DNA of 64,000 bases from an uncultured bacterium (lineage in GTDB: Bacteria > Verrucomicrobiota > Lentisphaeria > Victivallales > UBA1829), in NCBI GenBank assembly GCA_902802585.1, contig CADCMR010000001.1, positions 3,223 through 67,222 of the forward strand, written 5' to 3'. Of this stretch, positions 17,369-60,574 are shown piece by piece. Within the stretch, counting starts at the first letter, position 1; every line of letters starts with the position of its first letter. Position numbers and translations under genes: made by a program. The notes under the pieces were generated by a model. It searched no databases. It was not told the origin of the DNA and saw nothing but the letters and a program-made list of their open reading frames with translations.

Positions 17369-18973
17369 ATGTGGCCGTTCTCTGAAATAAACAGACTTCG
17401 GGAGGAGAATGAATCGTTAAAAAGGCGTATCCGTTCTCTTGAAGCCTCGCTCCAGCAAAAAGAAGGTCTGATTTCTTGCCTGCATGACGAGCAGAAAGTA
17501 ACAAATGAGAAGCTGATCGTGGCCGAATCTGACAGAAAGATGCTAAAAGAGAATCTTGATGTGGCAGAATATGATGTTGATACGCTGAATAAAGACCTTT
17601 ATTTCTTTAGGAATGTAGAAGTTACGCCAGAATTTTTATCTATTGAGGAAAACATAAGAAACCGTAAACAGTTTGTTTTTGTTCATGGTGGTGCAGGAAC
17701 AGGGAAATCAACCCTAATCCAATGGCTAAAAAACAGAGAGTTGATTCATGTAGTGCTTGCTCCAACAGGTTTGACCGCCTTGAATGTAGGAGGCATGACG
17801 ATTCATAAGGCTTTCGGTTTTCGTCCACAAGTGATTTTTCCAAAAGGCGGAATAACAGGAAGTTTGCCAAGCGAATTCTTAAATACCTTAATCAATCTAA
17901 AAAGAAAGAACATTGCCACAATCTGCATTGACGAAATCTCAATGGTACGTGCGGACTTGTTGGATGCTATTGATCTTTCTTTGAAAAACGCATTTAATAC
18001 GACAGCCCCATTCGGTGGCTTTCAAATGCTTTTCGTCGGCGATTTGTTTCAGTTGCCCCCTATTGTGAAACAGGATAAAAATGATCCAAATTCTATAAAC
18101 CCAAAGCCTTTTTTTAATCCGAATGATAAAAATTATCCCGGTAATACTCAGGGGTGGAGAAGCCCGTGGTTCTTTGATTCGGATGTAATATCAAAGTGTT
18201 CTAATTACCAAAATACGCTAAAAATTAACCTTAAAAAGGTATACCGTCAGGCTGGGGAAAAAGAATTTGTTGAGATATTAAATCAACTTCGCAGATATGA
18301 AAACAGAGCGAAAAACGCTAATAGATTGAATGAATTGTTTTCTGAAAACGAAAGAAAAGAAAACAGTGTAATAATAGTCGGAAAAAATCAACAAGCAGAT
18401 GAATATAATCAAGAACGTCTTCATATGCTTCAAACCCAATCAAGCATTTTTATCGGAATGAAAGATGGAACTTTTTCTGATCCAAAATCTTCCCCGCCTT
18501 TACCTGTTCCGGAAAAAATAGAACTAAAAATAGGGGAGTTTGTGATAGTTGTCGCAAATGATAGAGATAAACGCTATGTTAATGGGACCACAGCGTTTAT
18601 TACACGTTTTGGAGCTAAAGGAGAAGTCTATGTCAAAAATAAGAATGGAGAATTTGATGTACAAAAAAATGTTTGGGCGGATCATGATATTATTTGGAAT
18701 AATCATCGAAAATGCTTTGAGGATATTGAAGTCGGACATTATTCACAAATTCCACTTATTCCGGGTTATGCAATAACATGCCATAAGGCACAAGGAAAAA
18801 CTTTGGATAAGGTATTTGTTGATGTGGAACAGGCATTTGCTCCTGGGCAGATGTATGTTGCTTTAAGTCGGACGCGTTCCCCAAAAGACATTACGATGGC
18901 ACGGGATTTGACTGATGCAGATTTTAGGACGGATCCCCGTCTTTCGGAACTGGTTGGTCAGGGAAAAATATAA
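17369..18973 (+). CDS. PIF1/RecD-like superfamily 1B helicase with N-terminal coiled coil; AT-rich
   Basis: GGAGTGKST, APTGLTA, TIHK, IDEISMV, GDLFQLPP, YRQ, YAITCHKAQGKTL, YVALSR; visibly lower GC than the flanks. Confidence 0.88.
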   Translation: MWPFSEINRLREENESLKRRIRSLEASLQQKEGLISCLHDEQKVTNEKLIVAESDRKMLKENLDVAEYDVDTLNKDLYFFRNVEVTPEFLSIEENIRNRKQFVFVHGGAGTGKSTLIQWLKNRELIHVVLAPTGLTALNVGGMTIHKAFGFRPQVIFPKGGITGSLPSEFLNTLINLKRKNIATICIDEISMVRADLLDAIDLSLKNAFNTTAPFGGFQMLFVGDLFQLPPIVKQDKNDPNSINPKPFFNPNDKNYPGNTQGWRSPWFFDSDVISKCSNYQNTLKINLKKVYRQAGEKEFVEILNQLRRYENRAKNANRLNELFSENERKENSVIIVGKNQQADEYNQERLHMLQTQSSIFIGMKDGTFSDPKSSPPLPVPEKIELKIGEFVIVVANDRDKRYVNGTTAFITRFGAKGEVYVKNKNGEFDVQKNVWADHDIIWNNHRKCFEDIEVGHYSQIPLIPGYAITCHKAQGKTLDKVFVDVEQAFAPGQMYVALSRTRSPKDITMARDLTDADFRTDPRLSELVGQGKI

Positions 18974-19128
18974 TATGATCCTGCGAAAATGAGATAAGGC
19001 GGATTCGAATCCTTCCGTTCCCTCGGATCAGCTTAATCGTTGAACACAATAACTCCTCTTTAAGACCATCAAAGAAACATAGTCTGGCACAATTCCGAAA
19101 GAAATAATAAGTTTTTTCAGATTGCCGC

Positions 19129-19162
19129 TTGAAAACATGACGCATCACGTTATATTATACGT
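19129..19162 (+). promoter_or_regulatory. higBA promoter with overlapping imperfect palindrome (probable HigA operator)
   Basis: TTGAAA at 19129; TATATT/TATTAT at 19151-19158 inside the imperfect palindrome ACGTTATATTATACGT. Confidence 0.5.
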
Positions 19163-19177
19163 TGTGGAGAATAAACC

Positions 19178-19453
19178 ATGATAAAGAGTTTCAAAGACAA
19201 AGAAGCGGAAAAGATCTATAACGGCCTGCGGTCGGCTAAACTGCCCGGAACAATTCAGGATACCGCCCGCCGTCGTTTCAAGTATTTGAACAATGCTGTG
19301 GACTTGGAGGATTTGCGTGTGCCGCCGAGCAATCACTTCGAAGCATTGAGCGGCAGACCCGGAGTTTACAGCATACGGATCAACAACCAATGGCGCATAA
19401 CGTTCTCTTGGAACGACGGCGCGGAAAACGTCAGAATCGAAGATTACCACTAA
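19178..19453 (+). CDS. higB: RelE-fold toxin HigB (killer-protein type)
   Basis: MIKSFKDK...LRVPPSNHFEAL...YSIRINNQWRITF. Confidence 0.9.
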   Translation: MIKSFKDKEAEKIYNGLRSAKLPGTIQDTARRRFKYLNNAVDLEDLRVPPSNHFEALSGRPGVYSIRINNQWRITFSWNDGAENVRIEDYH

Positions 19454-19466
19454 CGGAGGCACAACT

Positions 19467-19799
19467 ATGGCAAATGAAGAACAATACCTGAAACCCGTAC
19501 ATCCCGGTGAAATATTGCTTGAAGATTTCATGAAGCCTCTTAATCTTTCGCAAAACAGACTGGCGCGGGAAATCGGCGTACCGCCGCGCCGGATCAACGA
19601 AATCATACACGGCAAACGCGCCGTAACCGCGGATACCGCCATGCGGCTAAGCCGTTTTTTCGGCACTTCCGCGCAGGTCTGGATCAATCTGCAGGCGGAA
19701 TACGAGTTGGATTGCGTGATCTACCGGGAGCGCATAGAGGGGCGGCACACGTTCGACTTTATTAAGGCCTTCAAGCCGGTTGCCGCCGCCATGCTGTAA
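19467..19799 (+). CDS. higA: HTH antitoxin HigA
   Basis: HPGEILLEDF, LAREIGV...INEIIHGKRAVTADTAMRL, WINLQ. Confidence 0.92.
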   Translation: MANEEQYLKPVHPGEILLEDFMKPLNLSQNRLAREIGVPPRRINEIIHGKRAVTADTAMRLSRFFGTSAQVWINLQAEYELDCVIYRERIEGRHTFDFIKAFKPVAAAML

Positions 19800-19801
19800 C
19801 G

Positions 19802-21340
19802 TCAGGCCTTCCGGTCGAGGGCGCGGTAGCCGATTGCCTCGAAGAGGTGTTCGCGGCGGATGTTCTCGGAACCTGCGAGGTCGGCGATGGTGCGCGCGAC
19901 GCGGAGGATGCGGTCATAGGCGCGCGCCGACAATCCGAATTCATTGATCGCGTGGCGGATCATGGTCTGGAGCTGGGGATCCAGCACGCAGTATCTCGTG
20001 AGCTGGGCGGGTCCCATCATGGCGTTGCATCGCACGCGGCTGTCGCGTCCGTAACGGCGCGTCTGGACTTCGCGTGCCGCGATGCACCTGGCACGGATGA
20101 CTGCGCTGGATTCCGCCGGACGCGTCGAGACAAGCTCGTCGTCGGACAGCGCCTCCACGTTCACATGCAGGTCGATGCGGTCGAGCAGCGGACCGGAAAT
20201 CTTCGCGCGGTACTGCTGAATCTGGAGCGAACGGCAGGAACAGCGGTGGCGGTGGTCGCCGAGGTGACCGCAGGGACACGGGTTCATGGCGGCGATGAGG
20301 AGGAAACGGCATGGGAAGACGAAACTGCCCGCGGCGCGGCTGATGGAGACCTCGCCGTTTTCGAGCGGCTGGCGGAGCACTTCGAGCGTGCTGCGCTTGA
20401 ACTCGGGGAGTTCGTCGAGGAAGAGCACGCCGTTGTGGGCGAGGCTGATTTCGCCGGGCTGGGGATTGGTGCCGCCGCCGATGAGCCCGGCGTCGCTGAC
20501 CGTGTGGTGCGGCGCGCGGAAGGGCCGTCTGCGGAGAAGCGGCGTATCGGACGGGAGCAGCCCGAGCACGGAATGGATCTTGCTCGTTTCGAGCGTCTCC
20601 TCCTCGGTCATGGGCGGCAGGATGCCGGGCATGCGCTGGGCGAGCATGCTTTTGCCGGAGCCGGGCGGTCCGATGAAGATCACGTTGTGTCCGCCAGCGG
20701 CGGCGATCTCAAGCGCGCGTTTTGCCGCCGCCTGCCCCTTGACCTCGGCGAAATCCGGGATGCCGTCCCAGTCCGGCTCCAGGAACACCGCGCCGTCGTT
20801 ATTCGAGAGCGGGAGGAGTTCGCCGGAGAGGGCGCGGATGGCGTCGGTGAGAGAATGGACCGCGAACACGCGGATGTGCGGCAGCACGGTCGCCGCCTCG
20901 CGGGCGTTTGCCGCGGGGACGATCAATGTACGGATCTCCGGCATCTGCCGTGCGAGGAGCGCGGCGGGCAGGACGCCCTTCACCGCGCGCACGGAACTGT
21001 CGAGCGCGAGTTCGCCGAGGATCATGGCGTCTTCGAGCGTCTCCTTCGGGAACGCTCCGGCGGCGGAGGCGAGCGCCAATGCGATCGGCAGGTCGAACGC
21101 CGTGCCTTCCTTGCGGATGTCGCCGGGCGCGAGGTTCACGAGCGTGAATCCCTCGGGATGCCGCAGTCCGGCGGCGTAAAGCGCGCTGCGGATGCGTTCC
21201 TTGCTTTCGCGGACCGCCGCGTCGGGCAGCCCCACGATGGAAACATTGACTCCTTCGCCCGCGCCGGACGCGTGGACTTCAATCTCGACCGCGACCGCGT
21301 CGATGCCGATGAGCGTGGCGGAGTATGTTCCCGTGAGCAT
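19802..21340 (-). CDS. comM: YifB/ComM Mg-chelatase-related ATPase
   Basis: [71 protein letters not shown]. Confidence 0.95.
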
Positions 21341-24131: not shown

Positions 24132-25628
24132 ATGCCGCGTCCTCGTCCGACCAGACGTGTTTTGAATATAGACGACCTCGAACCGCTCTGCGCCGCCGCG
24201 CTCACGCCGTTCCGCAAACGCGACGGCATCTACTACACGCCGCGACCAGTCGCCGAACGCATCGTATCCGCCGCGCTGGACGCACATCCCGGACTGAACC
24301 GAAAAAACGTGCCGAATCTGTGCATCATCGACCCCGCGTGCGGCTGCGGCGCGTTCCTCGCCGCCGCCATGCGCATCCTGCATGACCGGTTCGGTGTGCT
24401 GCCCCAGCCGGAAAACATCTGCGGAATTGAACTCCAGCCGCTCGCCGCCGAGGTCGCCGCGCTGCGTCTGCGCTGGCTTTATATGAGTTTGACCGGGACG
24501 CCCGGCGCGCCGCGCATCGTCTGTGCCGACGCATTGAACAAAAAAGTGTTCCCGGCAGGCTCGTTCGACCTCGTGCTCGGCAATCCGCCGTTCGTGCCGG
24601 TGGACACGATCCCCGAAAAGGACAAAAGCCGTCTTCGCAAACAGTATCGCTTCACGAACGGACGCTTCAACCTCTTTTCGCTCTTCATCGAGCTTGGCGC
24701 GAAACTGGCGCGCGAGGGGGGCGTGTGCGGCTGGCTCGCCCCGGATCGTCTGCTGCTCAATACGCAGGGGGTCGCCATGCGTCGCTGGCTCCTGACCGAA
24801 CAGCGCCTGGTCTCCGCCTCGTCGCTGCCGCCGGGGCTTTTCGGGAAGGCCGTGGTGGATTCCGCCGCGGTGATTTTCCGGCGCGAACCCATGCCGCCCG
24901 GCGGATGCGTGTGCATCGATGACGCCGGGGACGTGCCCGCCGCCGACATCCTCGCGTTCCCGGGGTGCCGCATCGTCGCCGGACTCTGCGCGGACGGCGC
25001 GTTCCTGCGGACGGTCCGGGCGCACAGTGTTCCGCTCGGTGAGATCGCCGACGTGCGCGACGGCGTGATCCAGGGCGCGGTCGGCAAAGAGCTTTTCGTG
25101 AGCTCACCGGAACGCGCCGCGAATCCGAAGCCGCTCCTCACCGGGCGCGACGTCGTCCGCATGAAGATCTTGCCCGCCGCCCGCTGGATCGACTACGATC
25201 CGCCGCGCATGGCGGCGCTCGAAGCCGCCCGCGTCGGGACCCGTCCGCCCGGACTGCGGATGCGCACGCCGGACGTCTTCGAGCGTCCGAAGATCCTGTC
25301 GCGCCAGACCGCCGACCGGATTGTCGCCGCCTGCGATTCCGTCGGGAAATATTATTACGCGAACACCCTGCACGGCACCGTGCCGCGTCCGGGGACTTAT
25401 TCGCTTCATTTTCTGGCGGCGGTCATGAACAGCGCGACCGTCGACCGCTGGTACCGGCTCGTCGCTTCGGAGTCCGGCAAGCCGTTTCCGCAGGTCAAGA
25501 TCGTGATCCTGAAACGCCTGCCCGTCTGTCGCGCCACCCGCCGTGAACAGTGCGCCGTGCTGCGTGCGCTGCGCCATGGCGGACCGACCGCGGCGGAACG
25601 TCTGATCGAACGCCTCTACGGACTGTGA
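24132..25628 (+). CDS. N6-adenine DNA methyltransferase (TaqI/Eco57I-like), no cognate endonuclease nearby
   Basis: GIYYTP, motif I IIDPACGCGAFL, GIEL, FDLVLGNPPF, TaqI-C-like tail (PKILSRQT, LAAVMNS); starts 2 nt after the rluD stop. Confidence 0.85.
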   Translation: MPRPRPTRRVLNIDDLEPLCAAALTPFRKRDGIYYTPRPVAERIVSAALDAHPGLNRKNVPNLCIIDPACGCGAFLAAAMRILHDRFGVLPQPENICGIELQPLAAEVAALRLRWLYMSLTGTPGAPRIVCADALNKKVFPAGSFDLVLGNPPFVPVDTIPEKDKSRLRKQYRFTNGRFNLFSLFIELGAKLAREGGVCGWLAPDRLLLNTQGVAMRRWLLTEQRLVSASSLPPGLFGKAVVDSAAVIFRREPMPPGGCVCIDDAGDVPAADILAFPGCRIVAGLCADGAFLRTVRAHSVPLGEIADVRDGVIQGAVGKELFVSSPERAANPKPLLTGRDVVRMKILPAARWIDYDPPRMAALEAARVGTRPPGLRMRTPDVFERPKILSRQTADRIVAACDSVGKYYYANTLHGTVPRPGTYSLHFLAAVMNSATVDRWYRLVASESGKPFPQVKIVILKRLPVCRATRREQCAVLRALRHGGPTAAERLIERLYGL

Positions 25629-49277: not shown

Positions 49278-52200
49278 TTACAGGCTTGCGAGGATGCCCT
49301 TGCCGGATTCCTCGAAGATGCGTTCCGAGGTAGCGTCAAAGAACGCGCCTATGCCGGACAACGCGGCGAACTGATCGGAACCGTCGTCACCGAGCTTGAG
49401 CGTGACCCTGTCCGCCGCGATGCCGGAGACCGTGACGCTGTTGTCGCCGTCGGTGTAGGTCAGCGTGGAAGCGTCCCACTTCGATTCGTCGCCCGATGCG
49501 AACCACAACGTGACCTTGCCGGTGGCGAGTTGTTCGACGGTATCAGTACCCCAGTTCTCGCCGAACGTGAAGATATCTTCTCCACCGCCACCGTGCAAGC
49601 GGTCATTTCCAATGCCACCAGCGATCACATCGTTGCCGGAGGCACCGACAATGCGATCGTTTCCTGCATCACCGAACAAGAGATTGCCGCCCTTGTTTGC
49701 CCAGATGACGTCGTTTCCGTCGCCGCCACGAATCGTGAGGCCATCGCCGACGTATTCGAAGCGCTGGCTGGTCATGTCAACGATATCATCGCCGAAGCCG
49801 GCACGGATTTCGTCAATCCGGGCGATGCGCGCCTGCTGTTCCGCGATCGAACCCGGCAGGTCGGTATAGATGTCGTCCACGAAGAGCGAGTCGCCGTTCT
49901 CATCGTCGCTCATCAGCAGGATGTTCGTGTCGTCCGAACCTTCGATGATGTCCGCGAGTTTGTTTTTGCCGTAGAGCCCGGCGTATTCATTGGTCCCGCC
50001 CCAATCGCCGATGGATCCGGCGTGCTGCGCCAGATAGCCGGATTCCCAGGTGCCGACGGCGTTCGCGAAAAACACGTCCGCGTTGCCGTCCGCGTCGGAT
50101 TTGACGAGCTGCGGCGCATCGCCCGTTTCCTCGGAAACGATGGGATCGCCGGTCAGCCATTCGTCGCTGTCTTCCTGCTTGACGCGCATCTGATAGGTCC
50201 CGCCCGGCATGCGGAAGGCGTCGAGCGAAGGCGTCGTGACCGCAAATGTGATGATATGTTCGAAATTGTCCGCGCTGTATTCCACGGTGTACGGCTTGAA
50301 CCCGGACACGGTGAACGCTTCTCCGGCGGTCACGGCCGATTCGTTGCCCGCGAAGTCAACCGCCTGCACGCTCCAGCTGTAGTCGCCGAAATCGGCGTTG
50401 TTCAGTACATAATTCGTATTGCTCGTCCTGACAGTGAACTCCTGCTCGTCGAGCGAGTACGTCACGACATACTCCTTCACACCGGAGGAATCGTCCATGC
50501 TCACGTCCCAGACCAGGGCGACCTTTTGCCCCGACACGATCGTGTCCAGCCCGGCAGGTGCCGTGGGCGCCACGTTGTCAATATTCGTGACCGTACAGCT
50601 TGCGATTTCGGATTCGTTGCCTGCTGTGTCGATCGCCTTGAAAAAGACGGTACCATTTTCGTAAAAGGTCACGCCACCGTCAGGATAATCCAACCACAAC
50701 CCGTTGTCCCCGAGTTTATAGAGAGAGGTCGCCACATCGACGTCGTCCGCGAATTCGGCGGTCACGGTCACGGATTTTGCGGGGCCCGTGGTACTCGCCA
50801 CGACATTGCTGATGACGGGGGCCGTTGTGTCAATATTCCCGAACGTGATTTCCGCAGTTCCGGTATTCCCTGCGGCATCGGTCGCCTGGAAATGATACGT
50901 TCCGTTAGACTTGACTTCAAAAGACCCGGTATATTCCGTCAACTCGGAATCCCCGATGCGATAGTATATTTTGCTGCCGTCATCCACGGTTGCGGTCAAT
51001 GTGCTCTTCTGAAGCGGCGTCCGGTTGTCGCCGGCAAGCGTGACCACAGGTTTGATCTTATCAATGTTCGTGACCTCGTAACTTGCCTCGGCGGTGTTCT
51101 CCGAGGTATCGACTGCCTTGAAATACACGGTCGTGTTTTCGGTCACGGTTATACCGTTTTTATAATCCGTCCAGGTTCCGTTTCCCCCGATCTTGTACTG
51201 CGAGGAAGCCAGCTCCACATTGTCGGAGAAGGTCGCGGTCACGATAACGTCCTGGTTGGTGGGCTCAGTGATGCTGGCCGTGATGTCGCTGATGGTCGGT
51301 GCGGTCGTGTCAGGTGCTTGCACAACCAATAATAAGGTCGATTCGTTCAAATTCAGAGAGTATTTGGTATCATTGACAATGATGGTTTCCCCGGGAGTGA
51401 GCGTACCGAGCGATTCCACATTGTTCTGAACAGTAATAGTTTGGTTGAATCCTTCCGCGCCCTCTGCAAGTACGTAGATGCCCCTCTCCTGAGTGTCGGA
51501 AACCGTGAGTCCATAGATTACAGAGCCTTGAATCTTAATGCGCGAGAGATCATTGACTCTCGCTTCTGCACCTGAAGTGAGCTCGGAAATGTCGAAGGTG
51601 ATCCTTGCCCCGCTGAACATTGATACAACAGCTCCATCTTCAATCGTTGTTTGTCCCATGATCCCGCCGCCGGAACTGATCAGAAAAGAACCTCCGGATC
51701 TGACAGTTGTGTTATTTGCGCGGCCAATGGCATCGACAATGACACAACCTCCTGAACTGATCATTGTGTTATTCAACCTGCCACCATAAATGATACCTTT
51801 GGTTCCACTCGCTAATACTTTTCCTCCATAGTACACTGTCGTATCGTTCGCCGTGCCACCAGAGTAAACGATACAGGAACCTCCAGAACTAATAATTGTA
51901 CTGTTCGCGATGCCGCTAACATTTACTTTTAATTCGCCTCCATAGCTGATAACGGTATTATTTACTGTTCCCTCGACATCCATCCAACTATCTGATTTGA
52001 CTGTAGTGTTGTTTGCTATACCGTGGGAAAGGACAGAAAAAAAAGTGCTTGAACTGACCGTGATGTCGGTTGCTGTGCCGCCGGATTCAATAGTAAGATT
52101 GGCAGGGCCATCCGGGGTGCCTATGACAGTGGTGCTGGTCACCACTCCGCCGCTTGAAATAAAGCAACTCCCGCCGTTGACGGTATAATTTGACACGATG

Positions 52201-52616
52201 CCATCTTTGATCTCGAAAACTGAACTGCCGGAAGTGCCGGTAATATAGGTGTCTTTCGCCACGTAGAAGATCAGACGTGCTCCAGAGCTAACTCTAATAT
52301 CGGTAGCCGTTCCTCCGCTGGAGACATAAAATAAGCCTTTGGAGTTGACCGTAGTATTGTTTGCTATTCCCCCGGAGAAAATATGCATTTCTCCACAGAA
52401 ATTGACCTTGGTGATATTAGCCGTGCCGCCGCTGGAGACATACATGTAGCCGGCTGAATTAATTGTAGTACTAAGAACGGTGCCGTTGTCTTTGACATAG
52501 AGAATGCCTCTGGAATTGAGCGTGGTACTGTTTGCCCCACCACCACTGTGAACCGTCATGGAATCGTATTGTAGCGTCCACCCACTAGCAACATCACCAT
52601 CTGTAACATACCACAT
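49278..52616 (-). CDS. Large surface protein: AIDA-like repeats + Ig-like/FN3 repeats + C-terminal RTX Ca-binding nonapeptides
   Basis: Many xSGGxAxxTxV repeats; repeated DTTAP/DKIKP Ig-like units; FN3-like APTAPAGL; GGDGNDVI, GDAGNDRI, GGIGNDRL; no signal peptide; start moved to MWYVT after the AAAGGAG RBS. Confidence 0.85.
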   Translation of the reverse strand: MWYVTDGDVASGWTLQYDSMTVHSGGGANSTTLNSRGILYVKDNGTVLSTTINSAGYMYVSSGGTANITKVNFCGEMHIFSGGIANNTTVNSKGLFYVSSGGTATDIRVSSGARLIFYVAKDTYITGTSGSSVFEIKDGIVSNYTVNGGSCFISSGGVVTSTTVIGTPDGPANLTIESGGTATDITVSSSTFFSVLSHGIANNTTVKSDSWMDVEGTVNNTVISYGGELKVNVSGIANSTIISSGGSCIVYSGGTANDTTVYYGGKVLASGTKGIIYGGRLNNTMISSGGCVIVDAIGRANNTTVRSGGSFLISSGGGIMGQTTIEDGAVVSMFSGARITFDISELTSGAEARVNDLSRIKIQGSVIYGLTVSDTQERGIYVLAEGAEGFNQTITVQNNVESLGTLTPGETIIVNDTKYSLNLNESTLLLVVQAPDTTAPTISDITASITEPTNQDVIVTATFSDNVELASSQYKIGGNGTWTDYKNGITVTENTTVYFKAVDTSENTAEASYEVTNIDKIKPVVTLAGDNRTPLQKSTLTATVDDGSKIYYRIGDSELTEYTGSFEVKSNGTYHFQATDAAGNTGTAEITFGNIDTTAPVISNVVASTTGPAKSVTVTAEFADDVDVATSLYKLGDNGLWLDYPDGGVTFYENGTVFFKAIDTAGNESEIASCTVTNIDNVAPTAPAGLDTIVSGQKVALVWDVSMDDSSGVKEYVVTYSLDEQEFTVRTSNTNYVLNNADFGDYSWSVQAVDFAGNESAVTAGEAFTVSGFKPYTVEYSADNFEHIITFAVTTPSLDAFRMPGGTYQMRVKQEDSDEWLTGDPIVSEETGDAPQLVKSDADGNADVFFANAVGTWESGYLAQHAGSIGDWGGTNEYAGLYGKNKLADIIEGSDDTNILLMSDDENGDSLFVDDIYTDLPGSIAEQQARIARIDEIRAGFGDDIVDMTSQRFEYVGDGLTIRGGDGNDVIWANKGGNLLFGDAGNDRIVGASGNDVIAGGIGNDRLHGGGGEDIFTFGENWGTDTVEQLATGKVTLWFASGDESKWDASTLTYTDGDNSVTVSGIAADRVTLKLGDDGSDQFAALSGIGAFFDATSERIFEESGKGILASL

Positions 52617-52888
52617 ATCAAGTTCTCCTTTTGTTGTTGAGTTGTTTTCGTTTGGCTTAAAAATGAAGAGAAAAGACTTGTTGTCGGACACAACAAGCCA
52701 TCATGAAGGTCAGGTTCGAGGATGCACAAGAATGATTGTCTGAGATTGTGACGCGAAGATAGACGTGATTTGCCGGAAGAATAGTATTCCGGCTACGACG
52801 TATAGGAGAATAATGTCGGGACAATCAGACAAAAACATTGGCGAATCTCGGCTGGATGATTCCTGAGCACGAGGAAACGCCTGAGCAT

Positions 52889-52930
52889 AAAAAAGCCGGA
52901 CGCTACCCCGTGCGTGAACGTGTAGGTCCG
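52889..52930 (-). terminator. Possible leader terminator upstream of the adhesin gene
   Basis: CGGAC/GTCCG plus CTAC/GTAG imperfect stem followed by T6 on the minus strand, about 270 nt before the ATG. Confidence 0.35.
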
Positions 52931-53206
52931 ACCAAGAACCCGATTCAGAGACGACAGAGAAACGTCCAGCAAGGCATGAGGATACAATGCTCCTGCTGGT
53001 ATTTCTTTCTCGGAATCAAAAGAATCTTTAGAAAACTTGTTCGGTTCACACGTTCTTTTGATGAAATAACCGATGTAATGAGCTCGAAACCAGATTCCTG
53101 TAGGTCAGGAAAGGGATTCCAAACAACAATTTACATGCGATTAAGAATATTTCAAGCCCTTTTCCTTCTTTTTTGAGATATTTGCCTCTTTTGAGGAGAA
53201 ACTAGG

Positions 53207-53345
53207 ACGCGATGCGTCCCCGCGTTGCTGGGGGCACCGCAGGCGGTGTTGAGGTAGTGTCCGGCTCCGCTCGGACACGAGTTTGCGCCGCCTCGGAAAG
53301 CTCGCTACGCTCGACAGATTTTATTGCCGCGAAGCGCGAACGGCA
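53207..53345. repeat. Right arm of the inverted repeat flanking the adhesin gene
   Basis: 53207-53235, 53287-53322 and 53335-53345 match the left arm in reverse complement; the 51-bp insert holds hairpins CACCGC/GCGGTG and GTGTCCG/CGGACAC. Confidence 0.8.
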
Positions 53346-53466
53346 GAGGGTTGGCAGATACGGCGAATGTGACGGATAGGGCGAATGGGGACACCTTATT
53401 CTATCTCACTTGCCTCATGCGCCTTATCTCCCAAGGGGGGCGGGGTGGCCTTGATCGCCGGGAGGC

Positions 53467-54726
53467 TTACTTCGAGGTCAGGCGTTTCGCGGCGTCGCGG
53501 GCTTCGGCGACGATCTCCTCCTCGCCGTCGACGTGCCCGCCGCGCATCAGGATGCGTCCGTCGCAGATGAGCATGTCGATGCAGGAGCTGTCCGCGGCGT
53601 AGACCATGTCGGAGACGATGTTGAACCCGGGGACGAGGTTGTGGTTGTTCAGGTCGACGAGGATGCAGTCGGCGAGGCGACCCTCCTCGATCAAGCCCGC
53701 GTCGATGCCGAACGCCTCGGCTCCGGAGCGCGTGGCGGCGCGGAAGACGTCCGCCGCCTTCACCGCCTTCGGATCGCCGGTGAGGTCCTTCCCGCGGAGG
53801 GCGGCGGTCTTCATTTCGCCGATCATGGAGAGGGAATTGTTGGAGGACGCGCCGTCGGTGCCGAGCGCCCAGCGGCACTTATTGAAGAGCGCGGCGCTGT
53901 CGTAGCGGAAATGGCCGGAGACGAGCTTCATGTTCGAGACGGGCATGTGGACGAGCACGGAACGGCGTTCGGCGAGCAGCTCGATGTCCTCGTCGGTGAG
54001 GAACACGGAGTGCGCGAGGACGGTCCTGTCCGTGAGGATGCCGCAGCTGTCGACGTAGGCGGTCGGGGACATACCGTGCTGCTCCATGCAGTCGTCGAAC
54101 TCCTTTTTCGTCTCGGCGAGGTGCGTATGGATCATGAGGCCGTACTTTTTCGCCGTGTCCGCCACATCGCGCAGGATATCCTCGGTGGTTGTGTAGATCG
54201 CGTGCGGCGCGACGGCGATCTGGATACGGTCGGAAAGGTTGTCGCGGTTCTCCAGCAGCCAGTCGTTGTCGAGCATGGGGAGGAACGCCGGATTGCCCAT
54301 GGTCTGGCGCAGGATGCCGATGCAGGCGCGGACGCCCATTTCCTCGGCGGCGCGGACGACCTGGCGGCCCCGCCAGTACATGTCGTTGAAGAAGACGGTG
54401 CCGGACTTGATCATTTCGAGGATGGCGAGGCGCGTCCCGGCGTAGACGTCTTCGTTGGTGAGGCGCGCCTCGACGGGCCAGATGTGGTTGCTGAGCCAGT
54501 CGAAGAGGTCAAGGTCGTCGGCGAATCCGCGCAGGAGGGACATGGCGGCGTGGGTGTGTGCGTTGTAGAAAGCGGGGAGGATCGCCATCGCGCCGTGGGC
54601 GTCGAGGGTCTCGTCGGCGGGTTCGGCGGGCGCGGACTGGGAGATGCTTGTGAACCGGTTTCCGTCGATGCGGACGTTGACCGTGGAACCGTTAAGGACG
54701 ACATTGCGGAGGAGGATGCTTGACAT
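53467..54726 (-). CDS. mtaD: Amidohydrolase, MTA/S-adenosylhomocysteine deaminase-like
   Basis: NAHTH, MSLLRGFADDLDLFDWL...IWPVE, FNDMY, APHAIYT, HTHLAET, LGTDGASSNN. Confidence 0.8.
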   Translation of the reverse strand: MSSILLRNVVLNGSTVNVRIDGNRFTSISQSAPAEPADETLDAHGAMAILPAFYNAHTHAAMSLLRGFADDLDLFDWLSNHIWPVEARLTNEDVYAGTRLAILEMIKSGTVFFNDMYWRGRQVVRAAEEMGVRACIGILRQTMGNPAFLPMLDNDWLLENRDNLSDRIQIAVAPHAIYTTTEDILRDVADTAKKYGLMIHTHLAETKKEFDDCMEQHGMSPTAYVDSCGILTDRTVLAHSVFLTDEDIELLAERRSVLVHMPVSNMKLVSGHFRYDSAALFNKCRWALGTDGASSNNSLSMIGEMKTAALRGKDLTGDPKAVKAADVFRAATRSGAEAFGIDAGLIEEGRLADCILVDLNNHNLVPGFNIVSDMVYAADSSCIDMLICDGRILMRGGHVDGEEEIVAEARDAAKRLTSK

Positions 54727-54782
54727 GATCTGTGACCTGTTTTCGGGTTGAATGGTTCGGATGAACGGGATTGCTTGTGGCG

Positions 54783-55820
54783 TCAGAGCCCCATCGCGTC
54801 GATTTCGGCGTTGATGACGCCCGCGGCGCGGACGTCGGCGAGGATGAAGTCTTCGACATGCGCGGCCGGCATCAGGATTCCGGATTTGGCGGTGCCGCGC
54901 AGGAGTTCGATGATGCCGGCGTTGTAAAGCGCCAGAGTCGGGTCGATGTAGCGCGTGGATGTGGGCTCGGCGAGCATGAAGTTGACCGGACGCTTTTCGT
55001 TGACGACGCGCTCCGGCGGGACGTCCTCGCCGAATTCGTCGCCTGCGCCCATGTTGACCAGCAGCGCGCCGCTGTCGAGCAGGAGCTGCGCATACGGCGC
55101 GAGCGCGTCGCGGATGCCCGTGGCGGAGATCACGATGCTGACGCCGTCCAGGAGCGCCGGAGTGAAGACGCGGCCCTGCGCCGGATCGACGATCCTGACG
55201 GTCGCGCCCGCCCTCGTCAGGGCGTATTCGATGCCGCGTCCGACGCGTCCGTGCCCGAAGAGCAGGACGGTCTTTCCGGCGGGATCGGCTCCGATGTGGC
55301 GAAGCCCGCGCAGACAGCCGTCGCCGGTGCCGAGCACGGTTTCGATGGACTTGATGCGTCCGGAGTCCGCCGCGAAAACGGGCTTGTCCGGCGGGTTGGT
55401 TTCATAGATGTGCACGCCGGAACGGGTGAGCTCACAATAGCCAAGCCGAACGGGAATGTCGCGGTTCAGTGCGCTGCAGTCGAGCACGGCGTCGAACGGT
55501 CCGGACGCGGCGGCTTCTTCCGCGCCGTGGCAGGTCGCGACGCCGATCCCGTCGAGGAAAGCGGGGATCGCCGGATCGTATCCGAGTTCGTCGGAATATA
55601 CGACCGCGAGTTCGGCGCCCGCCTCAAGCAGCGCGGCGTACTGCGCCAGGGTGTTCAGAAAGAGCGGTGTGCCGCAGAGGACGCGGAGTCCGTCCATCGG
55701 ACGGTCCGCGTGCCAGCGTTTCGCCTGTGCGGCGAGCGCAGGGTAGTCGCGTGCCGGATCAAGCTCAGGCGCGAGCGTCGCGGCGATCGCCTGGATTTGT
55801 GCGGCGCGGTCCGGTGTCAT
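54783..55820 (-). CDS. Divergent adenosylhomocysteinase-like NAD-binding protein
   Basis: AHCY-like layout: YPAL...PMDGLRV, ELTRSG, DSGRIKS, Rossmann GKTVLLFGHGRVGRG, ISATG, LVNMG, EKRPVN; start overlaps the cysS stop. Confidence 0.7.
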   Translation of the reverse strand: MTPDRAAQIQAIAATLAPELDPARDYPALAAQAKRWHADRPMDGLRVLCGTPLFLNTLAQYAALLEAGAELAVVYSDELGYDPAIPAFLDGIGVATCHGAEEAAASGPFDAVLDCSALNRDIPVRLGYCELTRSGVHIYETNPPDKPVFAADSGRIKSIETVLGTGDGCLRGLRHIGADPAGKTVLLFGHGRVGRGIEYALTRAGATVRIVDPAQGRVFTPALLDGVSIVISATGIRDALAPYAQLLLDSGALLVNMGAGDEFGEDVPPERVVNEKRPVNFMLAEPTSTRYIDPTLALYNAGIIELLRGTAKSGILMPAAHVEDFILADVRAAGVINAEIDAMGL

Positions 55821-57238
55821 AATTTGGAAAGTTCCGGTCCGGCGGGCGTGTCCTTCACCGCCCAGCCCGCGGCGTTGATCTGCGCTCGGATTGCGTCAGC
55901 GGCGGCGAAGTCCTTCGCCTTTTTCGCCTCGGCGCGTTTCTGCGCGAGTTCCAGGATTTCCGCAGGGACGTCCTGTTTCGGTGCGTTGGCGACCTCCAGC
56001 GCGGAATCGACGTCGAGGAACGCCAGCACACGGTCGAAATCGCGGTACTGGTCGAGCAGGACGTTCGCGGCGTCGCGTCCGATGCCCTTGCCGAGGAGCG
56101 CGTTGACTTCATGCGTGAACTTATGGACGGCGGCGAGCGCCTCCGCGATGTTCAGGTCGTCGGCGAGTCCGTCGGCGAACTTCCCGCGCGCGGCTTCCGC
56201 GGCGGCTTTCGCCTCGGCGAGAAGCGCGTCGCCGGCGGGGACCGTGTTCAGGCGCGCAAAGAGCGTATGGAATTTCTTCAGGGCGGACCGCGCCGTTCCG
56301 AGGGCATCCGGGTCGAAATTGAGCTTGGAGCGGTAATGCGTGCCGAGCAGAAGATAGCGGATCTCTGCACCGGACCAGCCTTTTGCCGTGAGGTCGCGCA
56401 GCGTGTAGAAGTTGCCGAGCGACTTCGACATCTTCTGCCCCTTGATCGTGAGGTGTTCGCAGTGGAGCCAGTAATTCACGAACTTGCACCCGTTGGCGGA
56501 TTCGCTCTGCGCGATCTCGTCCTCGTGGTGCGGGAACATATTGTCGACGCCGCCGGTATGGATGTCGAACGTGAGCCCGAGGTATTTGCGGCTCATGGCG
56601 GAGCATTCGAGGTGCCAGCCGGGGCGGCCGGGTCCCCACGGGCTGTCCCAGCGCACGTCGCCGTCGTTTTCGTCCCAGGCTTTCCAGAGGGCGAAATCCG
56701 CCACGGAGTCCTTGGCGTACTCGTCGCTGCGGACGCGGTCGCCGATGCGCTGGTTTTCGAAGTCGAGCTTGACCAGCTGACCGTAGTTTTTGCATTTCTC
56801 GATGGAGAAATAGATGGAGCCGTCGTCGGACTGGTACGCATAGCCCTTGTCCATCAGCTGCCGGATCATGTCGAGCATTTCCGGGATGTGCGCTGTGGCT
56901 TCCGGGTAGTGTTCCGCGGGTTCGACGCGGAGCGTGCGGAGGTCTTCGAAGAACGCATCCTTGTATTTGCGCGTGAAAACCTGGAGCGGCAGCCCGGCGG
57001 CGCGCGAATCGCGGATGGTCTTGTCGTCGACGTCGGTCAGGTTCATGACCTGTGTGACCTTGATGCCATGGTATTCCAGCGTGCGGCGGAGGAGGTCCTC
57101 GAAGAGATATGCGCGGAAATTCCCGATGTGGGCGTAGTTATAGACCGTAGGACCGCAGGTGTACATCCCGGCGAATCCCTCGCGGATCGGGGTGAATTCG
57201 GTCATGCGGCGTCCGAGCGTATTGAAAAAACGGATCAT
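55817..57238 (-). CDS. cysS: Cysteine--tRNA ligase
   Basis: [53 protein letters not shown]; start moved to MIRFF. Confidence 0.97.
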
Positions 57239-57284: not shown

Positions 57285-57368
57285 AATATACTCCATGCCG
57301 GGGAAGAATGCAAGGCGATCCAAATTAATCATGACCTCCTTGATTTTGGAAGAAACCGCGGATATATT
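57285..57368. promoter_or_regulatory. Divergent promoters for cysS (-) and the flippase (+)
   Basis: Minus: TTGCAT-17-TATATT (57313 to 57285); plus: TTGATT-17-TATATT (57340-57368). Confidence 0.6.
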
Positions 57369-57425: not shown

Positions 57426-58967
57426 ATGCAAGTCTCCGTCGCCAAAAACACCGCCACAAATTATCTTGTGATCCTGATCCGGACATTTCAGGGGCTGCTG
57501 GTCACGCGGTGGATGGTCGGTTTCCTCGGCGACAGCGGATACGGTCTGTGGACGTTGCTCTGGACGTTCTTCGGATATGCGCTGCTGATGGATTTCGGCG
57601 TCGGCATCGCCGGACAGAAATACACCTCGCATGAACTCTTCAAGCGTGACATCCGGCACTACAATTCCATCATTTCGATGATATTCACGTTCCATTCGCT
57701 GATGACGCTTCTGATCCTTCTTGGCGTGTTCATTGCGTCGTTTTTCCTGGAAAAGCTGTTCAATGTCCACGATCCTGAGCAGCTGGCGTACTGCCGGAAA
57801 TGCTTCTTTGTTTTTTCCATCGGTTCTGCCCTGATCTTTCCTCTCTGCCTGTTTTCCGAGCTCATGGTCGGACTTCACAAAATCTATATCAAAAACTATA
57901 TCGACTGCGGGTTCCGGATCTGCGAGCTGGTCGGTTTCCTGATCATCCTGAAACTCGGCGGGGGGCTGTACGAAATCATCTGGTTTGTTATTATCCTGAT
58001 GGCTGTGGAACGGAGTTTCACCGGTTTCTGCGTGTCCAGGTATATTCCCGGCTTCCGTCTGCGGTTTCATCTGTTTGACCGGCAGGTGTTCCACGAGGTG
58101 TTCGGTTTTTCGAGCGGCACATATTTTGTGTCGCTGGCGAGGCTGTTGCGAACCCAGACGCGCAATCCGATCATCAGCAGATATTGCGGGCTTGGTTCCG
58201 TCGGCATCCTGCAATTATCCTCCCGTCTGTCCGGACTGTGCAACCAGGCGATCAGCCAGTATAATGCCAATGTCCGTCCCGTTACGGCACAGCTGTATCA
58301 TCGCGGACGGTTCCGCATGTTGCGGTGTTTTATTATAAAATCCATGCAGTGGAACATGTTCATGTGCTGCCTGTTTATTATTCCCGCGTTCTTTCTCCGG
58401 GACGAAGCGATTGTAGCGTTGTTCAAAAAAGAGATTACCCCTCTGATTCATACATTGAGCTTTTTCTCGTTGCTTGGTACATTCAATTGGCTTGTCGTCA
58501 CGCAAATCCCGTCGTCCGTGCTGCTGATGTGCGAAAAACATCACCTTCACGCCTGGACTTCCATGGCCGAGGCTCTGGTCGTGGTTTTTCTGAACATTCT
58601 GTTTCTCCGTGCCGGAACCAGTATCATCTGCGTTGAAGTCATTTCTTTTTGTGCGAGTGTCGTTCTGTTTTTCGTCGTCCGGTATCCCGTCATGCAGAAA
58701 CTGATTCACGGCAATGCGCTGCACGACCTGTGGAGCATTTATGTCCCGTCTCTGCTGGCTTCGGTGCCCGCGGCTGTTGCATTGTTTTTTTGTAAGAAGC
58801 TTCTGCTTGGACATGTCCATGAGTTTCTGCTTTGCGCCGTCTGCGGGATTGTCTATGCCGTCATTTATGCGGCAACCGCATGGCATTTCCTGATCGGTCG
58901 GACGAAGAAAGAGCTTTGGAAACGCCGCGTGATGACCCGTGTGCGGAAACACCTGTTAAAAGCCTGA
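57426..58967 (+). CDS. Wzx/MOP-family oligosaccharide flippase
   Basis: About 12-14 TM segments; LGDSGYGLW, DFGVGIA, GFSSGTYF; lower GC than the core genes. Confidence 0.85.
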   Translation: MQVSVAKNTATNYLVILIRTFQGLLVTRWMVGFLGDSGYGLWTLLWTFFGYALLMDFGVGIAGQKYTSHELFKRDIRHYNSIISMIFTFHSLMTLLILLGVFIASFFLEKLFNVHDPEQLAYCRKCFFVFSIGSALIFPLCLFSELMVGLHKIYIKNYIDCGFRICELVGFLIILKLGGGLYEIIWFVIILMAVERSFTGFCVSRYIPGFRLRFHLFDRQVFHEVFGFSSGTYFVSLARLLRTQTRNPIISRYCGLGSVGILQLSSRLSGLCNQAISQYNANVRPVTAQLYHRGRFRMLRCFIIKSMQWNMFMCCLFIIPAFFLRDEAIVALFKKEITPLIHTLSFFSLLGTFNWLVVTQIPSSVLLMCEKHHLHAWTSMAEALVVVFLNILFLRAGTSIICVEVISFCASVVLFFVVRYPVMQKLIHGNALHDLWSIYVPSLLASVPAAVALFFCKKLLLGHVHEFLLCAVCGIVYAVIYAATAWHFLIGRTKKELWKRRVMTRVRKHLLKA

Positions 58968-59569
58968 GTTTTTTCTGCAGCGGCACCGCGATTCATGTTT
59001 TTTCGTAAAAGAGCGATACGTTAGCTTTTCGGTAATAGGTTCTGTTGCAAATACCCAATGGCAAGAATAATTTCCTTCATTCTTCCATGCAGAAAAAAAG
59101 TGACGCATCTGTTCGTAATGGAACGAGCGAGGAATCGAAAATGGCCTAATAATTATAACATCGAATGCTGCAATAATCCAAGCCTTCCTTGAGCAGACAA
59201 TGAACAACACGTTTTTTATGAGGTTAAATGACACTTTTTTGTTTTGGATGGCATATTGGGATGCGACTGCCAAAAGTCAGAAGCAAGCTTTTTTTCGACA
59301 GATTTGTTGCCAGTCTTGAGCATGGCCCTAGTGGATAATTCTGCGGTTTTTTGGACTTCACGGACTTTTGGCAGTTCTGTCTATTTGCTCTTGCATTCCA
59401 CAGATATCCCATATTTTTTTGAAAACTTGACAAAAAGAGAACCCATGCTACCTTATTCTCTGCTACAAGACGGAGGCAGACATGATCAAGATTGCCGCCA
59501 TGGAGACTTTTTTTGATTTTTATGAGATATCTGCGCTTGCATTCAAAAAACATTTTTTTTATTTTTTTC

Positions 59570-59597
59570 TTGAAAAAAAGATATGTTGTGATATATT
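59570..59597 (+). promoter_or_regulatory. Promoter of the GT8 gene
   Basis: TTGAAA-16nt-TATATT with TG. Confidence 0.55.
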
Positions 59598-59671
59598 AAC
59601 CATCGAAAAGACTCCACCTCCTGAAAGGCCTCCCGCGGAACAAAGAACAGAAAAGAATTCGTTTTGATGTT

Positions 59672-60574
59672 ATGAAAACAAAGATAGTTTATATCTTGAT
59701 TTGCGATCAAGATGATTCATTTGCGGCAATTCAGGCGGTTTCGTTGTACACCCTGAGAAAAAAGCATGGGAAAGATGATACGAGTGTTTTAACCGTCATG
59801 GATTCATCCACGTATCGGATATTGGAACAAATCAAATCACCAATTCTTTCGGAATCAGCACCTGTAATCGTTGATATCCCGCCGGAATATAACCAGATGC
59901 AGAAGTCCCGGTATCTTAAAACAAGGCTGCGTGAAATTGTGCAGGGGGACTTTCTCTTTATTGACGGAGACACTCTGATAGCGGATCGTTTAGACGAAAT
60001 AGACCGGATGGATCAGAATACGGATATTGCGGCGGTGTCTGATGGACACGAGGAGACCCGTAATGTCGGAGCAATAGACAAGATGCCCGAGAAATGCCGG
60101 AAAGCCGGTTTTTCCAATCTGGATAACGAGCATTGTTTTAATAGCGGTGTTCTGTTTGTCCGCGATACTCCGGTGGCGCATGATTTTTTCAGGACGTGGC
60201 ATGATTGCTGGAAGCAGTCGCTTGCCAACGGCGTCCATTTCGACCAGCCTGCCATGTGGGAAGCGAACAGGATCATGGGACATCCCGTTCAGGAGTTTTC
60301 CGGCGTTTGGAATTGCCAGTTTTACACGAAGAAAAGAGAAAACTACAACCGTTACGTCAAAGAATCGAAAATACTGCACTATTACAGGACATTCTATCAT
60401 GGACGTCTTCTGTTATCCATAATTGATCAGGTAAGCAAGACCGGAAAAGTGAATTTCAAGAGCGCAGTGTTTTTACAGTGGCCGCGGACCATCGTTTATA
60501 TTATGCATCTGTCCATGTTCAAAGCGAAACTGCGGGATAGCTTTATCTCGGGCATAAGATCTCATCGAAAATAG
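59672..60574 (+). CDS. Glycosyltransferase family 8-like
   Basis: FLFIDGDT (DxD), FNSGVL, DQPAM, WNCQ, ILHY; AT-rich. Confidence 0.85.
   Translation: MKTKIVYILICDQDDSFAAIQAVSLYTLRKKHGKDDTSVLTVMDSSTYRILEQIKSPILSESAPVIVDIPPEYNQMQKSRYLKTRLREIVQGDFLFIDGDTLIADRLDEIDRMDQNTDIAAVSDGHEETRNVGAIDKMPEKCRKAGFSNLDNEHCFNSGVLFVRDTPVAHDFFRTWHDCWKQSLANGVHFDQPAMWEANRIMGHPVQEFSGVWNCQFYTKKRENYNRYVKESKILHYYRTFYHGRLLLSIIDQVSKTGKVNFKSAVFLQWPRTIVYIMHLSMFKAKLRDSFISGIRSHRK

Follow-up and report, generated by a model that had tools for sequence, protein, structure and literature searches.

Background

S-adenosylhomocysteine (SAH), MTA (5'-methylthioadenosine) and 5'-deoxyadenosine are inhibitory by-products of reactions that use S-adenosylmethionine (SAM), and their removal is needed in every cell. 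Three routes are known for SAH: hydrolysis by SAH hydrolase (SAHH; AHCY), cleavage by MTA/SAH nucleosidase (MTAN) and LuxS, and deamination followed by the action of S-inosylhomocysteine (SIH) hydrolase (SIHH). The deaminase-first route has been described in the bacterium Thermotoga maritima, and the deaminase together with SIHH also in Methanocaldococcus (PMC10978960). A short nucleobase fingerprint, HxTxE in SAH-preferring and HxExK in SIH-preferring hydrolases, distinguishes the two types of enzyme, and in some bacteria that carry the deaminase, Streptomyces among them, SIH must be metabolised by an unidentified enzyme (Koeppl et al. 2024, PMC10978960); Streptomyces produces SIH, but its SAHHs leave it uncleaved (PMC10978960).

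Here we describe, in a 64,000-nt stretch of DNA from an uncultured bacterium of the Victivallales (contig CADCMR010000001.1; "the window" below), a deaminase gene of this general kind preceded by the gene for an AHCY-like protein. The latter is neither a canonical SAHH nor a canonical SIHH and represents a separate, old and unnamed branch of the AHCY superfamily, the members of which are commonly encoded next to such a deaminase in several phyla. A sequence-only reading of the window had put forward a bacterial deaminase-first route as a candidate undescribed pathway. Since that route is already known from T. maritima (PMC10978960), what is new is the second enzyme, not the route: the AHCY-like enzyme branch is novel, and both the deaminase type and the order of deamination before hydrolysis are known.

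An AHCY fold with a rewired catalytic set

The two genes lie downstream of cysS, with the following layout.

55817..57238, reverse strand: cysS, cysteine--tRNA ligase, 473 aa from the ATG at 57238 (TIGR00435, 458 bits against a cutoff of 340; PF01406, E = 3e-106; HIGN and KMSKS motifs)
54783..55820, reverse strand: AHCY-fold NAD-binding protein, 345 aa, unnamed family (AlphaFold2 model, Foldseek, hhalign)
54727..54782, reverse strand: spacer of 56 nt from the AHCY-like gene to the deaminase gene (sequence)
53467..54726, reverse strand: amidohydrolase-superfamily nucleoside deaminase, 419 aa, of the MTA/SAH/5'-deoxyadenosine deaminase group (PF01979, E = 3.5e-61)
53204..53225, reverse strand: weak terminator-like hairpin and possible operon end, about 240 nt past the deaminase stop (consensus scan, with a count no higher than in shuffled sequences)

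An ATGA common to the cysS stop and the start of the AHCY-like gene produces a 4-nt overlap; coordinates and sequence agree with the sequence-only reading both here and on the 56-nt gap. The mechanical open reading frame (ORF) of cysS runs on to a TTG at 57313. In the spacer (54727-54782) a site scan found nothing promoter-like or terminator-like.

No Pfam or NCBIfam model reaches its cutoff on the AHCY-like protein. AdoHcyase_NAD (PF00670) scores 19.3 bits against a cutoff of 27, the curated adenosylhomocysteinase model TIGR00936 scores 28.9 against 497.6, PF05221 gives no match, and weak matches extend to the NAD domains of FolD, shikimate dehydrogenase and 2-hydroxyacid dehydrogenases. An AlphaFold2 model built with 19 homologues as input has a pLDDT of 93.1 and a pTM of 0.89, and the 50 best Foldseek matches of this model in the PDB are all SAHH or SIHH structures (E-values of 2e-16 to 2e-13, TMq 0.62-0.78, identity 14-20%). 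The profile of the family (132 sequences) aligns by hhalign with human AHCY at a probability of 99.7 and an E-value of 4e-25. The predicted architecture is thus the two-domain AHCY fold with a Rossmann NAD domain.

Residues were mapped through the same hhalign alignment, with a human reference sequence identical to PDB 1LI4 over 432 of 432 residues. The human positions and their equivalents in the window protein are as follows.

His55: Pro52 (GTPLF), replaced
Thr57: Phe54, replaced
Glu59: Asn56, replaced
Asp131: Cys115 (LDCSA), replaced
Glu156: Leu131 (ELTRSG), replaced
Thr157: Thr132, kept
Lys186: Lys157 (DSGRIKS), kept
Asp190: Glu160, kept as acidic
Rossmann GxGxxG: GHGRVGRG (189-196), kept
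Acidic residue after beta-2: Asp212, kept
His301-Phe302 gate: Ala259-Gly260 (GAGD), replaced

The equivalent of human His353 is ambiguous, being Asp293 in the global hhalign alignment and Thr287 in a gap-free reading. The C-terminal tail is absent (345 aa compared with 432 aa in human AHCY), and the nucleobase fingerprint, T-P-L-F-L-N-T or PxFxN, is neither HxTxE(Q) nor HxExK. Because it misses the curated model cutoffs and departs from the fingerprint and at four catalytic positions, the protein falls outside the SAHH/SIHH family. The sequence-only reading had recognised the same pattern, and the profile alignment bears it out: the NAD motif and the catalytic Lys are retained, LHMT has become GTPLF, LDDGG LDCSA, EETTTG ELTRSG and GHFD GAGD, the C-terminal region is short, and the protein is not canonical.

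Extent and conservation of the family

The AHCY-like protein has hundreds of close homologues of equal length. When one genome per GTDB species was scanned, 452 stretches of species-representative genomes held relatives, and at least 452 species genomes carry the family. The hosts include Lentisphaeria/Victivallales of the rumen and gut (among them the cultured Victivallis vadensis), Kiritimatiellaeota/Kiritimatiellia, Akkermansia glycaniphila, many metagenome-assembled genomes (MAGs) of Akkermansia sp., other Akkermansiaceae, Rikenellaceae/Alistipes and MAGs of Actinomycetota, where close homologues are labelled Candidatus Nanopelagicales (freshwater). None was seen among the family matches from Akkermansia muciniphila, and the family was not found in Streptomyces. 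When 1.8 billion cluster representatives were searched exhaustively with a profile, 1266 matched, 298 of them below 1e-30. Public databases label these proteins "NAD(P)-dependent oxidoreductase" (NCBI), "adenosylhomocysteinase" (automatic; JGI, UniProt) or "hypothetical protein", and literature searches on a named bacterial AHCY-like family, on Akkermansia adenosylhomocysteinase and on the deaminase family yielded nothing about it.

The family fingerprint comprises TPxFxNT (50-57), D114-C115, E130-L131-T132, K157, E160, GHGRVGRG (189-196), D212, D261-E262, N280-F281 and P286-T287. Across 132 cluster representatives, K157 and E160, the equivalents of Lys186 and Asp190, are present in 100%, and D110, D114, C115 (93%), E130-L131-T132, Y139, D152, R171, the Rossmann glycines, D/E212, D261-E262, N280-F281, P286-T287 and D293 are near-invariant. 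The substitutions at catalytic and gate positions of AHCY (Pro52, Cys115, Leu131, Ala259-Gly260) are themselves conserved throughout the family. Judged from these alignments, the pattern fits a working ligand or active site distinct from that of AHCY, rather than a decaying copy.

The deaminase and its linkage to the AHCY-like gene

The closest solved relatives of the deaminase are the MTA/SAH deaminase of Chromobacterium (4F0R, E = 2.5e-68), the Pseudomonas enzyme 4GBD and Thermotoga Tm0936 (1P1M/2PLM, E = 2e-49). Its motifs are H57-x-H59, WPVE86, H175, H202-x-x-E205, H239 and D291, of which H57/H59, H202/E205, H239 and D291 match the metal-binding and catalytic positions in 4F0R. The segment DWLSNHIWPVE86 aligns with DWLTNYIWPTE of 4F0R, the motif with the ribose-binding Glu; the Glu that binds the ribose diol is Glu84 in Tm0936 numbering. 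By sequence the protein groups, as the sequence-only reading had proposed, with the MTA/SAH/5'-deoxyadenosine deaminases, and its catalytic set is complete. Within this group it is a related but separate clade, since every NCBIfam equivalog cutoff is missed: PRK06038 scores 387 against 609, PRK07228 (5'-deoxyadenosine deaminase) 287 against 522, and PRK15493 (MTA/SAH deaminase) 213 against 779. The Arg residues for the homocysteine carboxylate, which bear on a preference for SAH over MTA or 5'-deoxyadenosine, map ambiguously onto it.

Linkage was counted over 82 distinct loci from several phyla (80 species genomes and two metagenome or Logan contigs), with genes called by an ORF caller seeded with tblastn anchors. 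In 59 of the 82 an MTA/SAH-type amidohydrolase is the immediate same-strand downstream neighbour of the AHCY-like gene, so that the pairing expected from the window alone recurs in other genomes. In two Bacteroidota loci the deaminase is adjacent but convergent, in the Akkermansia locus L057 it lies 3 kb downstream, and it also follows the distant family member P0170; several loci without an adjacent deaminase stop at a contig edge. No further gene family consistently adjoins the AHCY-like gene. The arrangement is far beyond chance.

Pairwise identities of the AHCY-like protein and of the deaminase are correlated (r = 0.87). Actinomycetota pairs (MAG loci L040 and L062) are 52%/59% identical to the Victivallis pair, and the Lentisphaeria pair of the window is 46%/54% identical to it; because the former are about as close to Victivallis as the latter, the identities suggest that the two genes have been transferred as a unit. 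A tblastn search with human AHCY, E. coli MtnN and E. coli LuxS over the window and loci L001-L086 (about 1.2 Mb, with fewer than one match expected by chance) hit the AHCY-like genes only, which says nothing about the rest of these genomes.

The position of cysS is a different matter. It lies upstream of the pair in 20 of the 82 loci, all from one clade of Lentisphaeria, and a functional link to cysS was rejected on these counts; elsewhere the upstream gene is murE/murF, queC or, in Akkermansia, a sulfatase gene. As the cysS link is lineage-specific, it lends no support to the connection with sulfur amino-acid metabolism that had been drawn from the window. In four Akkermansia sp. MAG loci (L057, 604-3470; L078; L081; L084) the upstream sulfatase gene overlaps the AHCY-like gene by 4 nt, and a membrane protein gene followed by rplS lies downstream of the AHCY-like gene.

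In a rumen metatranscriptome, contigs from related strains cover cysS, the AHCY-like gene and the deaminase gene and cross both gene junctions, one of them bridging the AHCY-like gene and the deaminase (joint 54727/54783). Depth is about zero in both flanks of the operon and zero in the bin 53308-53461, just past the deaminase stop at 53467. The three genes are expressed and, given contigs that span genes and junctions with almost no depth outside, are probably co-transcribed. No riboswitch or other Rfam element was found in or around the operon, and a search for SAH, SAM or other riboswitches upstream of it and in nine loci with a stand-alone gene returned only two tRNAs and one sub-threshold chance match.

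Subfamilies and kinase-linked relatives

Three groups can be told apart in the family by the residues at the SAHH nucleobase fingerprint. The TPxFxNT group, to which the window protein belongs, accounts for 69 of the 132 cluster representatives, and adjacency to the deaminase belongs to this group, one distant member included. In the PxT/SxE group a PAS histidine kinase gene adjoins one of three examined members and a deaminase lies near none of the three; in the xHxTxS group the proteins are N-terminal domains fused to PAS-HisKA-HATPase sensor kinases. The subfamilies with adenine-type residues (PxTxE, HxTxS) have no adjoining deaminase. A TPxFxN variant with K133 and D161 has ABC_sub_bind (PF04392) genes alongside and, in one of two examined loci, a downstream HATPase_c protein.

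Since the fingerprint position sets the base preference (PMC10978960), an adenine nucleoside is the probable ligand of the branches in which Thr and Glu are kept. In the branch linked to the deaminase exactly these residues have changed, which would fit a deaminated (hypoxanthine) ligand.

Kinases of the PAS-HisKA-HATPase(-REC-Hpt) type with an N-terminal AHCY-like domain, or with the kinase gene directly downstream, were found in P0220, P0230, P0235, P0236, P0244, P0250 and P0262, and the same association occurs in L090 (4773-7820) and L097 (5001-8019). In these distant members His and Thr are still in place in the HxTxE fingerprint of AHCY, and their AHCY-like domains look like an undescribed cytoplasmic sensor domain. 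Other fusions (P0223, P0246, P0252, P0238) involve DUF3293, Dabb with an OTU-like protease, DUF218 and DUF6829. Among the distant stand-alone members, one lies beside a divergent metNIQ-like methionine ABC transporter and a short-chain dehydrogenase/reductase gene (L093, 1507-6002), and another follows a LysE-family exporter and a LysR regulator (L092, 3320-6068). A distant AHCY-like and deaminase pair (L098, 1-7783) follows the gene for a PAS-repeat protein of over 2300 aa and precedes that for a single-domain response regulator.

Proposed function and alternatives

On these grounds we propose, tentatively but as a real possibility, that the AHCY-like gene and the deaminase gene encode a housekeeping module of two enzymes for the disposal or recycling of 5'-substituted adenosines from SAM-dependent reactions, with the deaminase acting first and the AHCY-like protein carrying out a step like that of SIHH. 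In the first step, which is well supported by homology, the amidohydrolase would deaminate SAH, MTA and/or 5'-deoxyadenosine to the inosine analogues. In the second, the AHCY-like protein, with NAD tightly bound, may oxidise the 3'-OH of a deaminated thioether nucleoside (SIH, possibly 5'-methylthioinosine, MTI) by means of Lys157 and Glu160. Oxidation at the 3' position would render the C4'-H acidic, the 5'-thiol would be eliminated and water added, and the products would be inosine and homocysteine (or methanethiol). With His55, Asp131 and His301 lost, acid/base catalysis and water activation might fall to Cys115, at the position of Asp131, and to Asp261-Glu262, at the His301-Phe302 gate; with FxN in place of xTxE in the nucleobase fingerprint, the pocket would be suited to hypoxanthine. 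The protein would thus act like an SIHH while lying outside the SAHH/SIHH family, and co-transcription with cysS would be incidental to the Lentisphaeria lineage. The substrate, the order of the steps and the roles of Cys115 and the acidic pair are what we infer from these comparisons.

Several observations weigh against this proposal. About a quarter of the loci have no adjoining deaminase. His55, Asp131, Glu156 and His301, all regarded as important in AHCY, are replaced, and as the His-Phe gate and the C-terminal tail are missing, AHCY-type hydrolysis may be impossible. The many relatives that serve as sensor-kinase input domains suggest ligand binding rather than turnover, and the position of the AHCY-like gene ahead of the deaminase gives no reaction order.

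The loss of the residues that act at C5' and on water, together with retention of those for 3'-OH oxidation, could instead mean a different chemistry. After NAD-dependent 3'-oxidation the nucleobase would be eliminated, as in a GH4-like redox-assisted nucleosidase, or 5'-deoxyinosine or MTI would be processed in some other way, chiefly for disposal of 5'-deoxyadenosine in anaerobes rich in radical SAM enzymes. Many hosts are sulfatase-rich gut anaerobes (Lentisphaeria, Kiritimatiellia, Akkermansiaceae, Rikenellaceae); sulfatase maturation in such organisms uses radical SAM chemistry, and much 5'-deoxyadenosine is made. The 4-nt overlap with a sulfatase gene in the four Akkermansia loci and the presence of 5'-deoxyadenosine deaminase among the nearest NCBIfam matches of the deaminase point the same way. 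Against this, the sulfatase adjacency is confined to one genus, the pair also occurs in freshwater Nanopelagicales, and we know of no precedent for a redox-assisted nucleosidase in the AHCY fold. We consider this chemistry unlikely.

A non-catalytic role receives a similarly small share of our confidence. The protein would then be a nucleoside- or NAD(H)-binding regulator, a pseudoenzyme like AHCYL1/IRBIT; it would respond to SAH or to inosine derivatives by modulating the deaminase or some other target. The loss of the AHCY catalytic His and Asp agrees with such a role, as do the relatives that are N-terminal input domains of PAS-HisKA-HATPase kinases or adjoin kinase genes. The deaminase-linked proteins, however, stand alone without an output domain and are carried in housekeeping operons, and Lys157, Glu160, Cys115 and the NAD motif are conserved even at 40% overall identity, as is typical of an active site.

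The reverse order of steps has a slim chance of being correct. Here the AHCY-like enzyme would cleave SAH to adenosine and homocysteine, and the deaminase would remove adenosine, pulling an unfavourable equilibrium. The equilibrium of SAHH favours synthesis, so that adenosine removal is needed; relatives of the MTA/SAH deaminases accept adenosine too, and 4F0S, which is the same protein as 4F0R, holds inosine. The AHCY-like gene also precedes the deaminase gene in the operon. What speaks against the reverse order is that the adenine fingerprint HxTxE has turned into PxFxN precisely in the deaminase-linked subfamily, whereas the subfamilies that keep xTxE lack the deaminase.

An ordinary, merely divergent SAHH of the canonical methyl cycle, to which the automatic JGI and UniProt name and the match in fold and cofactor site would point, is highly improbable in view of the failing TIGR00936 and PF00670 scores and the absence of HxTxE, Asp131, Glu156, the His301-Phe302 gate and the C-terminal tail. 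Hardly more credible is an unrelated NAD-dependent oxidoreductase whose deaminase adjacency has no functional meaning, as the NCBI name and the weak FolD, shikimate dehydrogenase and 2-hydroxyacid dehydrogenase matches might suggest, because the adjacency spans phyla in three arrangements with correlated divergence, the top structural matches are all SAHHs and the ribose-binding Lys/acid pair is kept.

A bolder reading, which we hold to be doubtful, is that the AHCY-like protein is the founding example of an AHCY-superfamily enzyme family that uses NAD and a Lys/Glu/Cys triad on deaminated SAM by-products, and hence the "missing" SIH/MTI enzyme of SAH-deaminase bacteria, its adenine-type paralogues being nucleoside (adenosine/SAH) input domains of histidine kinases.

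Genomic surroundings

The host of the window is a bovine gut or rumen organism, the closest relatives of which are rumen Lentisphaeria/Victivallales MAGs, and the remaining window is ordinary chromosome (tsaD, folD, pgk, tpiA, dnaJ, htpG, prfB, lgt, galK). Downstream of the deaminase, 775 nt without genes (52692-53466) have no Rfam match; metatranscriptome depth in the bin 53154-53307 is about 194, against zero in the neighbouring bin. The next gene, just downstream of the operon (49278-52691, reverse strand), encodes a 1137-aa repeat protein with AIDA-type adhesin repeats, Ig/FN3-like repeats and C-terminal RTX calcium-binding nonapeptides. On the other side, positions 57426-60574 (forward strand) have a low GC content (about 45% against about 60% elsewhere) and encode a GT8 glycosyltransferase along with a Wzx-like polysaccharide flippase; this may be a glycan locus gained by horizontal transfer. 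A second low-GC stretch (18001-20000, 44.8%) is unannotated apart from two small ORFs of 91 and 110 aa, which by size and arrangement look like a toxin-antitoxin or helix-turn-helix pair. Amid housekeeping genes, 24132-25628 (forward strand) encodes an Eco57I/TaqI-like N6-adenine DNA methyltransferase, a component of type II restriction-modification.

Comparison with known systems

The AHCY-like family, with members in at least 452 species genomes and a conserved link to the deaminase, offers a concrete candidate for the SIH-degrading enzyme of deaminase-bearing bacteria outside Streptomyces, and the automatic "adenosylhomocysteinase" labels may mask real gaps in metabolic reconstructions of gut bacteria. 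With its conserved Cys at the Asp131 position the family illustrates how the AHCY scaffold can be rewired, and the relatives fused to kinases suggest that a class of cytoplasmic sensor domains, nucleoside- or NAD-linked, has yet to be described.

With SAHH/AHCY (EC 3.13.2.1) the AHCY-like protein shares the two-domain fold (Foldseek E-value about 1e-16), an NAD site made up of GxGxxG and, after beta-2, an acidic residue, as well as the equivalents of Thr157, Lys186 and Asp190. It differs in its low identity (14-20%), in being about 60-90 residues shorter without the C-terminal tail, and in invariant residues of its own family (D110, Y139, R171, D261-E262, F281, P286-T287, D293).

The proposed logic is identical to that of SIHH (EC 3.13.1.9; the archaeal 7R3A, deposited as Methanococcus maripaludis, and T. 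maritima SAHH, 5TOV/3X2E) working with DadD or Tm0936: an MTA/SAH-type deaminase and then an AHCY-fold enzyme. In both cases the nucleobase fingerprint is altered at the same position and a deaminase of the DadD/MtaD type is encoded too, here as the next gene in 59 of 82 loci. SIHHs, however, are true SAHH-family members of about 405-435 aa, with HxExK and all catalytic His and Asp residues kept, whereas the AHCY-like protein has PxFxN and a rewired catalytic set, and tight adjacency to the deaminase gene is the rule for its family.

The window deaminase aligns end to end with MtaD (Tm0936; Cv1032, 4F0R), DadD and the P. aeruginosa MTA deaminase 4GBD, which works with an MTI phosphorylase, and it keeps their HxH, H, HxxE, H and D residues and the ribose-binding Glu of WPxE; its partner is the AHCY-like protein instead of a canonical SAHH or a purine nucleoside phosphorylase. 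Finally, the eukaryotic, non-catalytic AHCYL1/IRBIT (3MTG, 3GVP) uses the AHCY fold for binding and regulation, in parallel to the AHCY-like members fused to histidine kinases. The IRBIT proteins are close AHCY paralogues with an added N-terminal regulatory region, whereas the bacterial family branched off separately and long ago and has its own, strongly conserved pocket.

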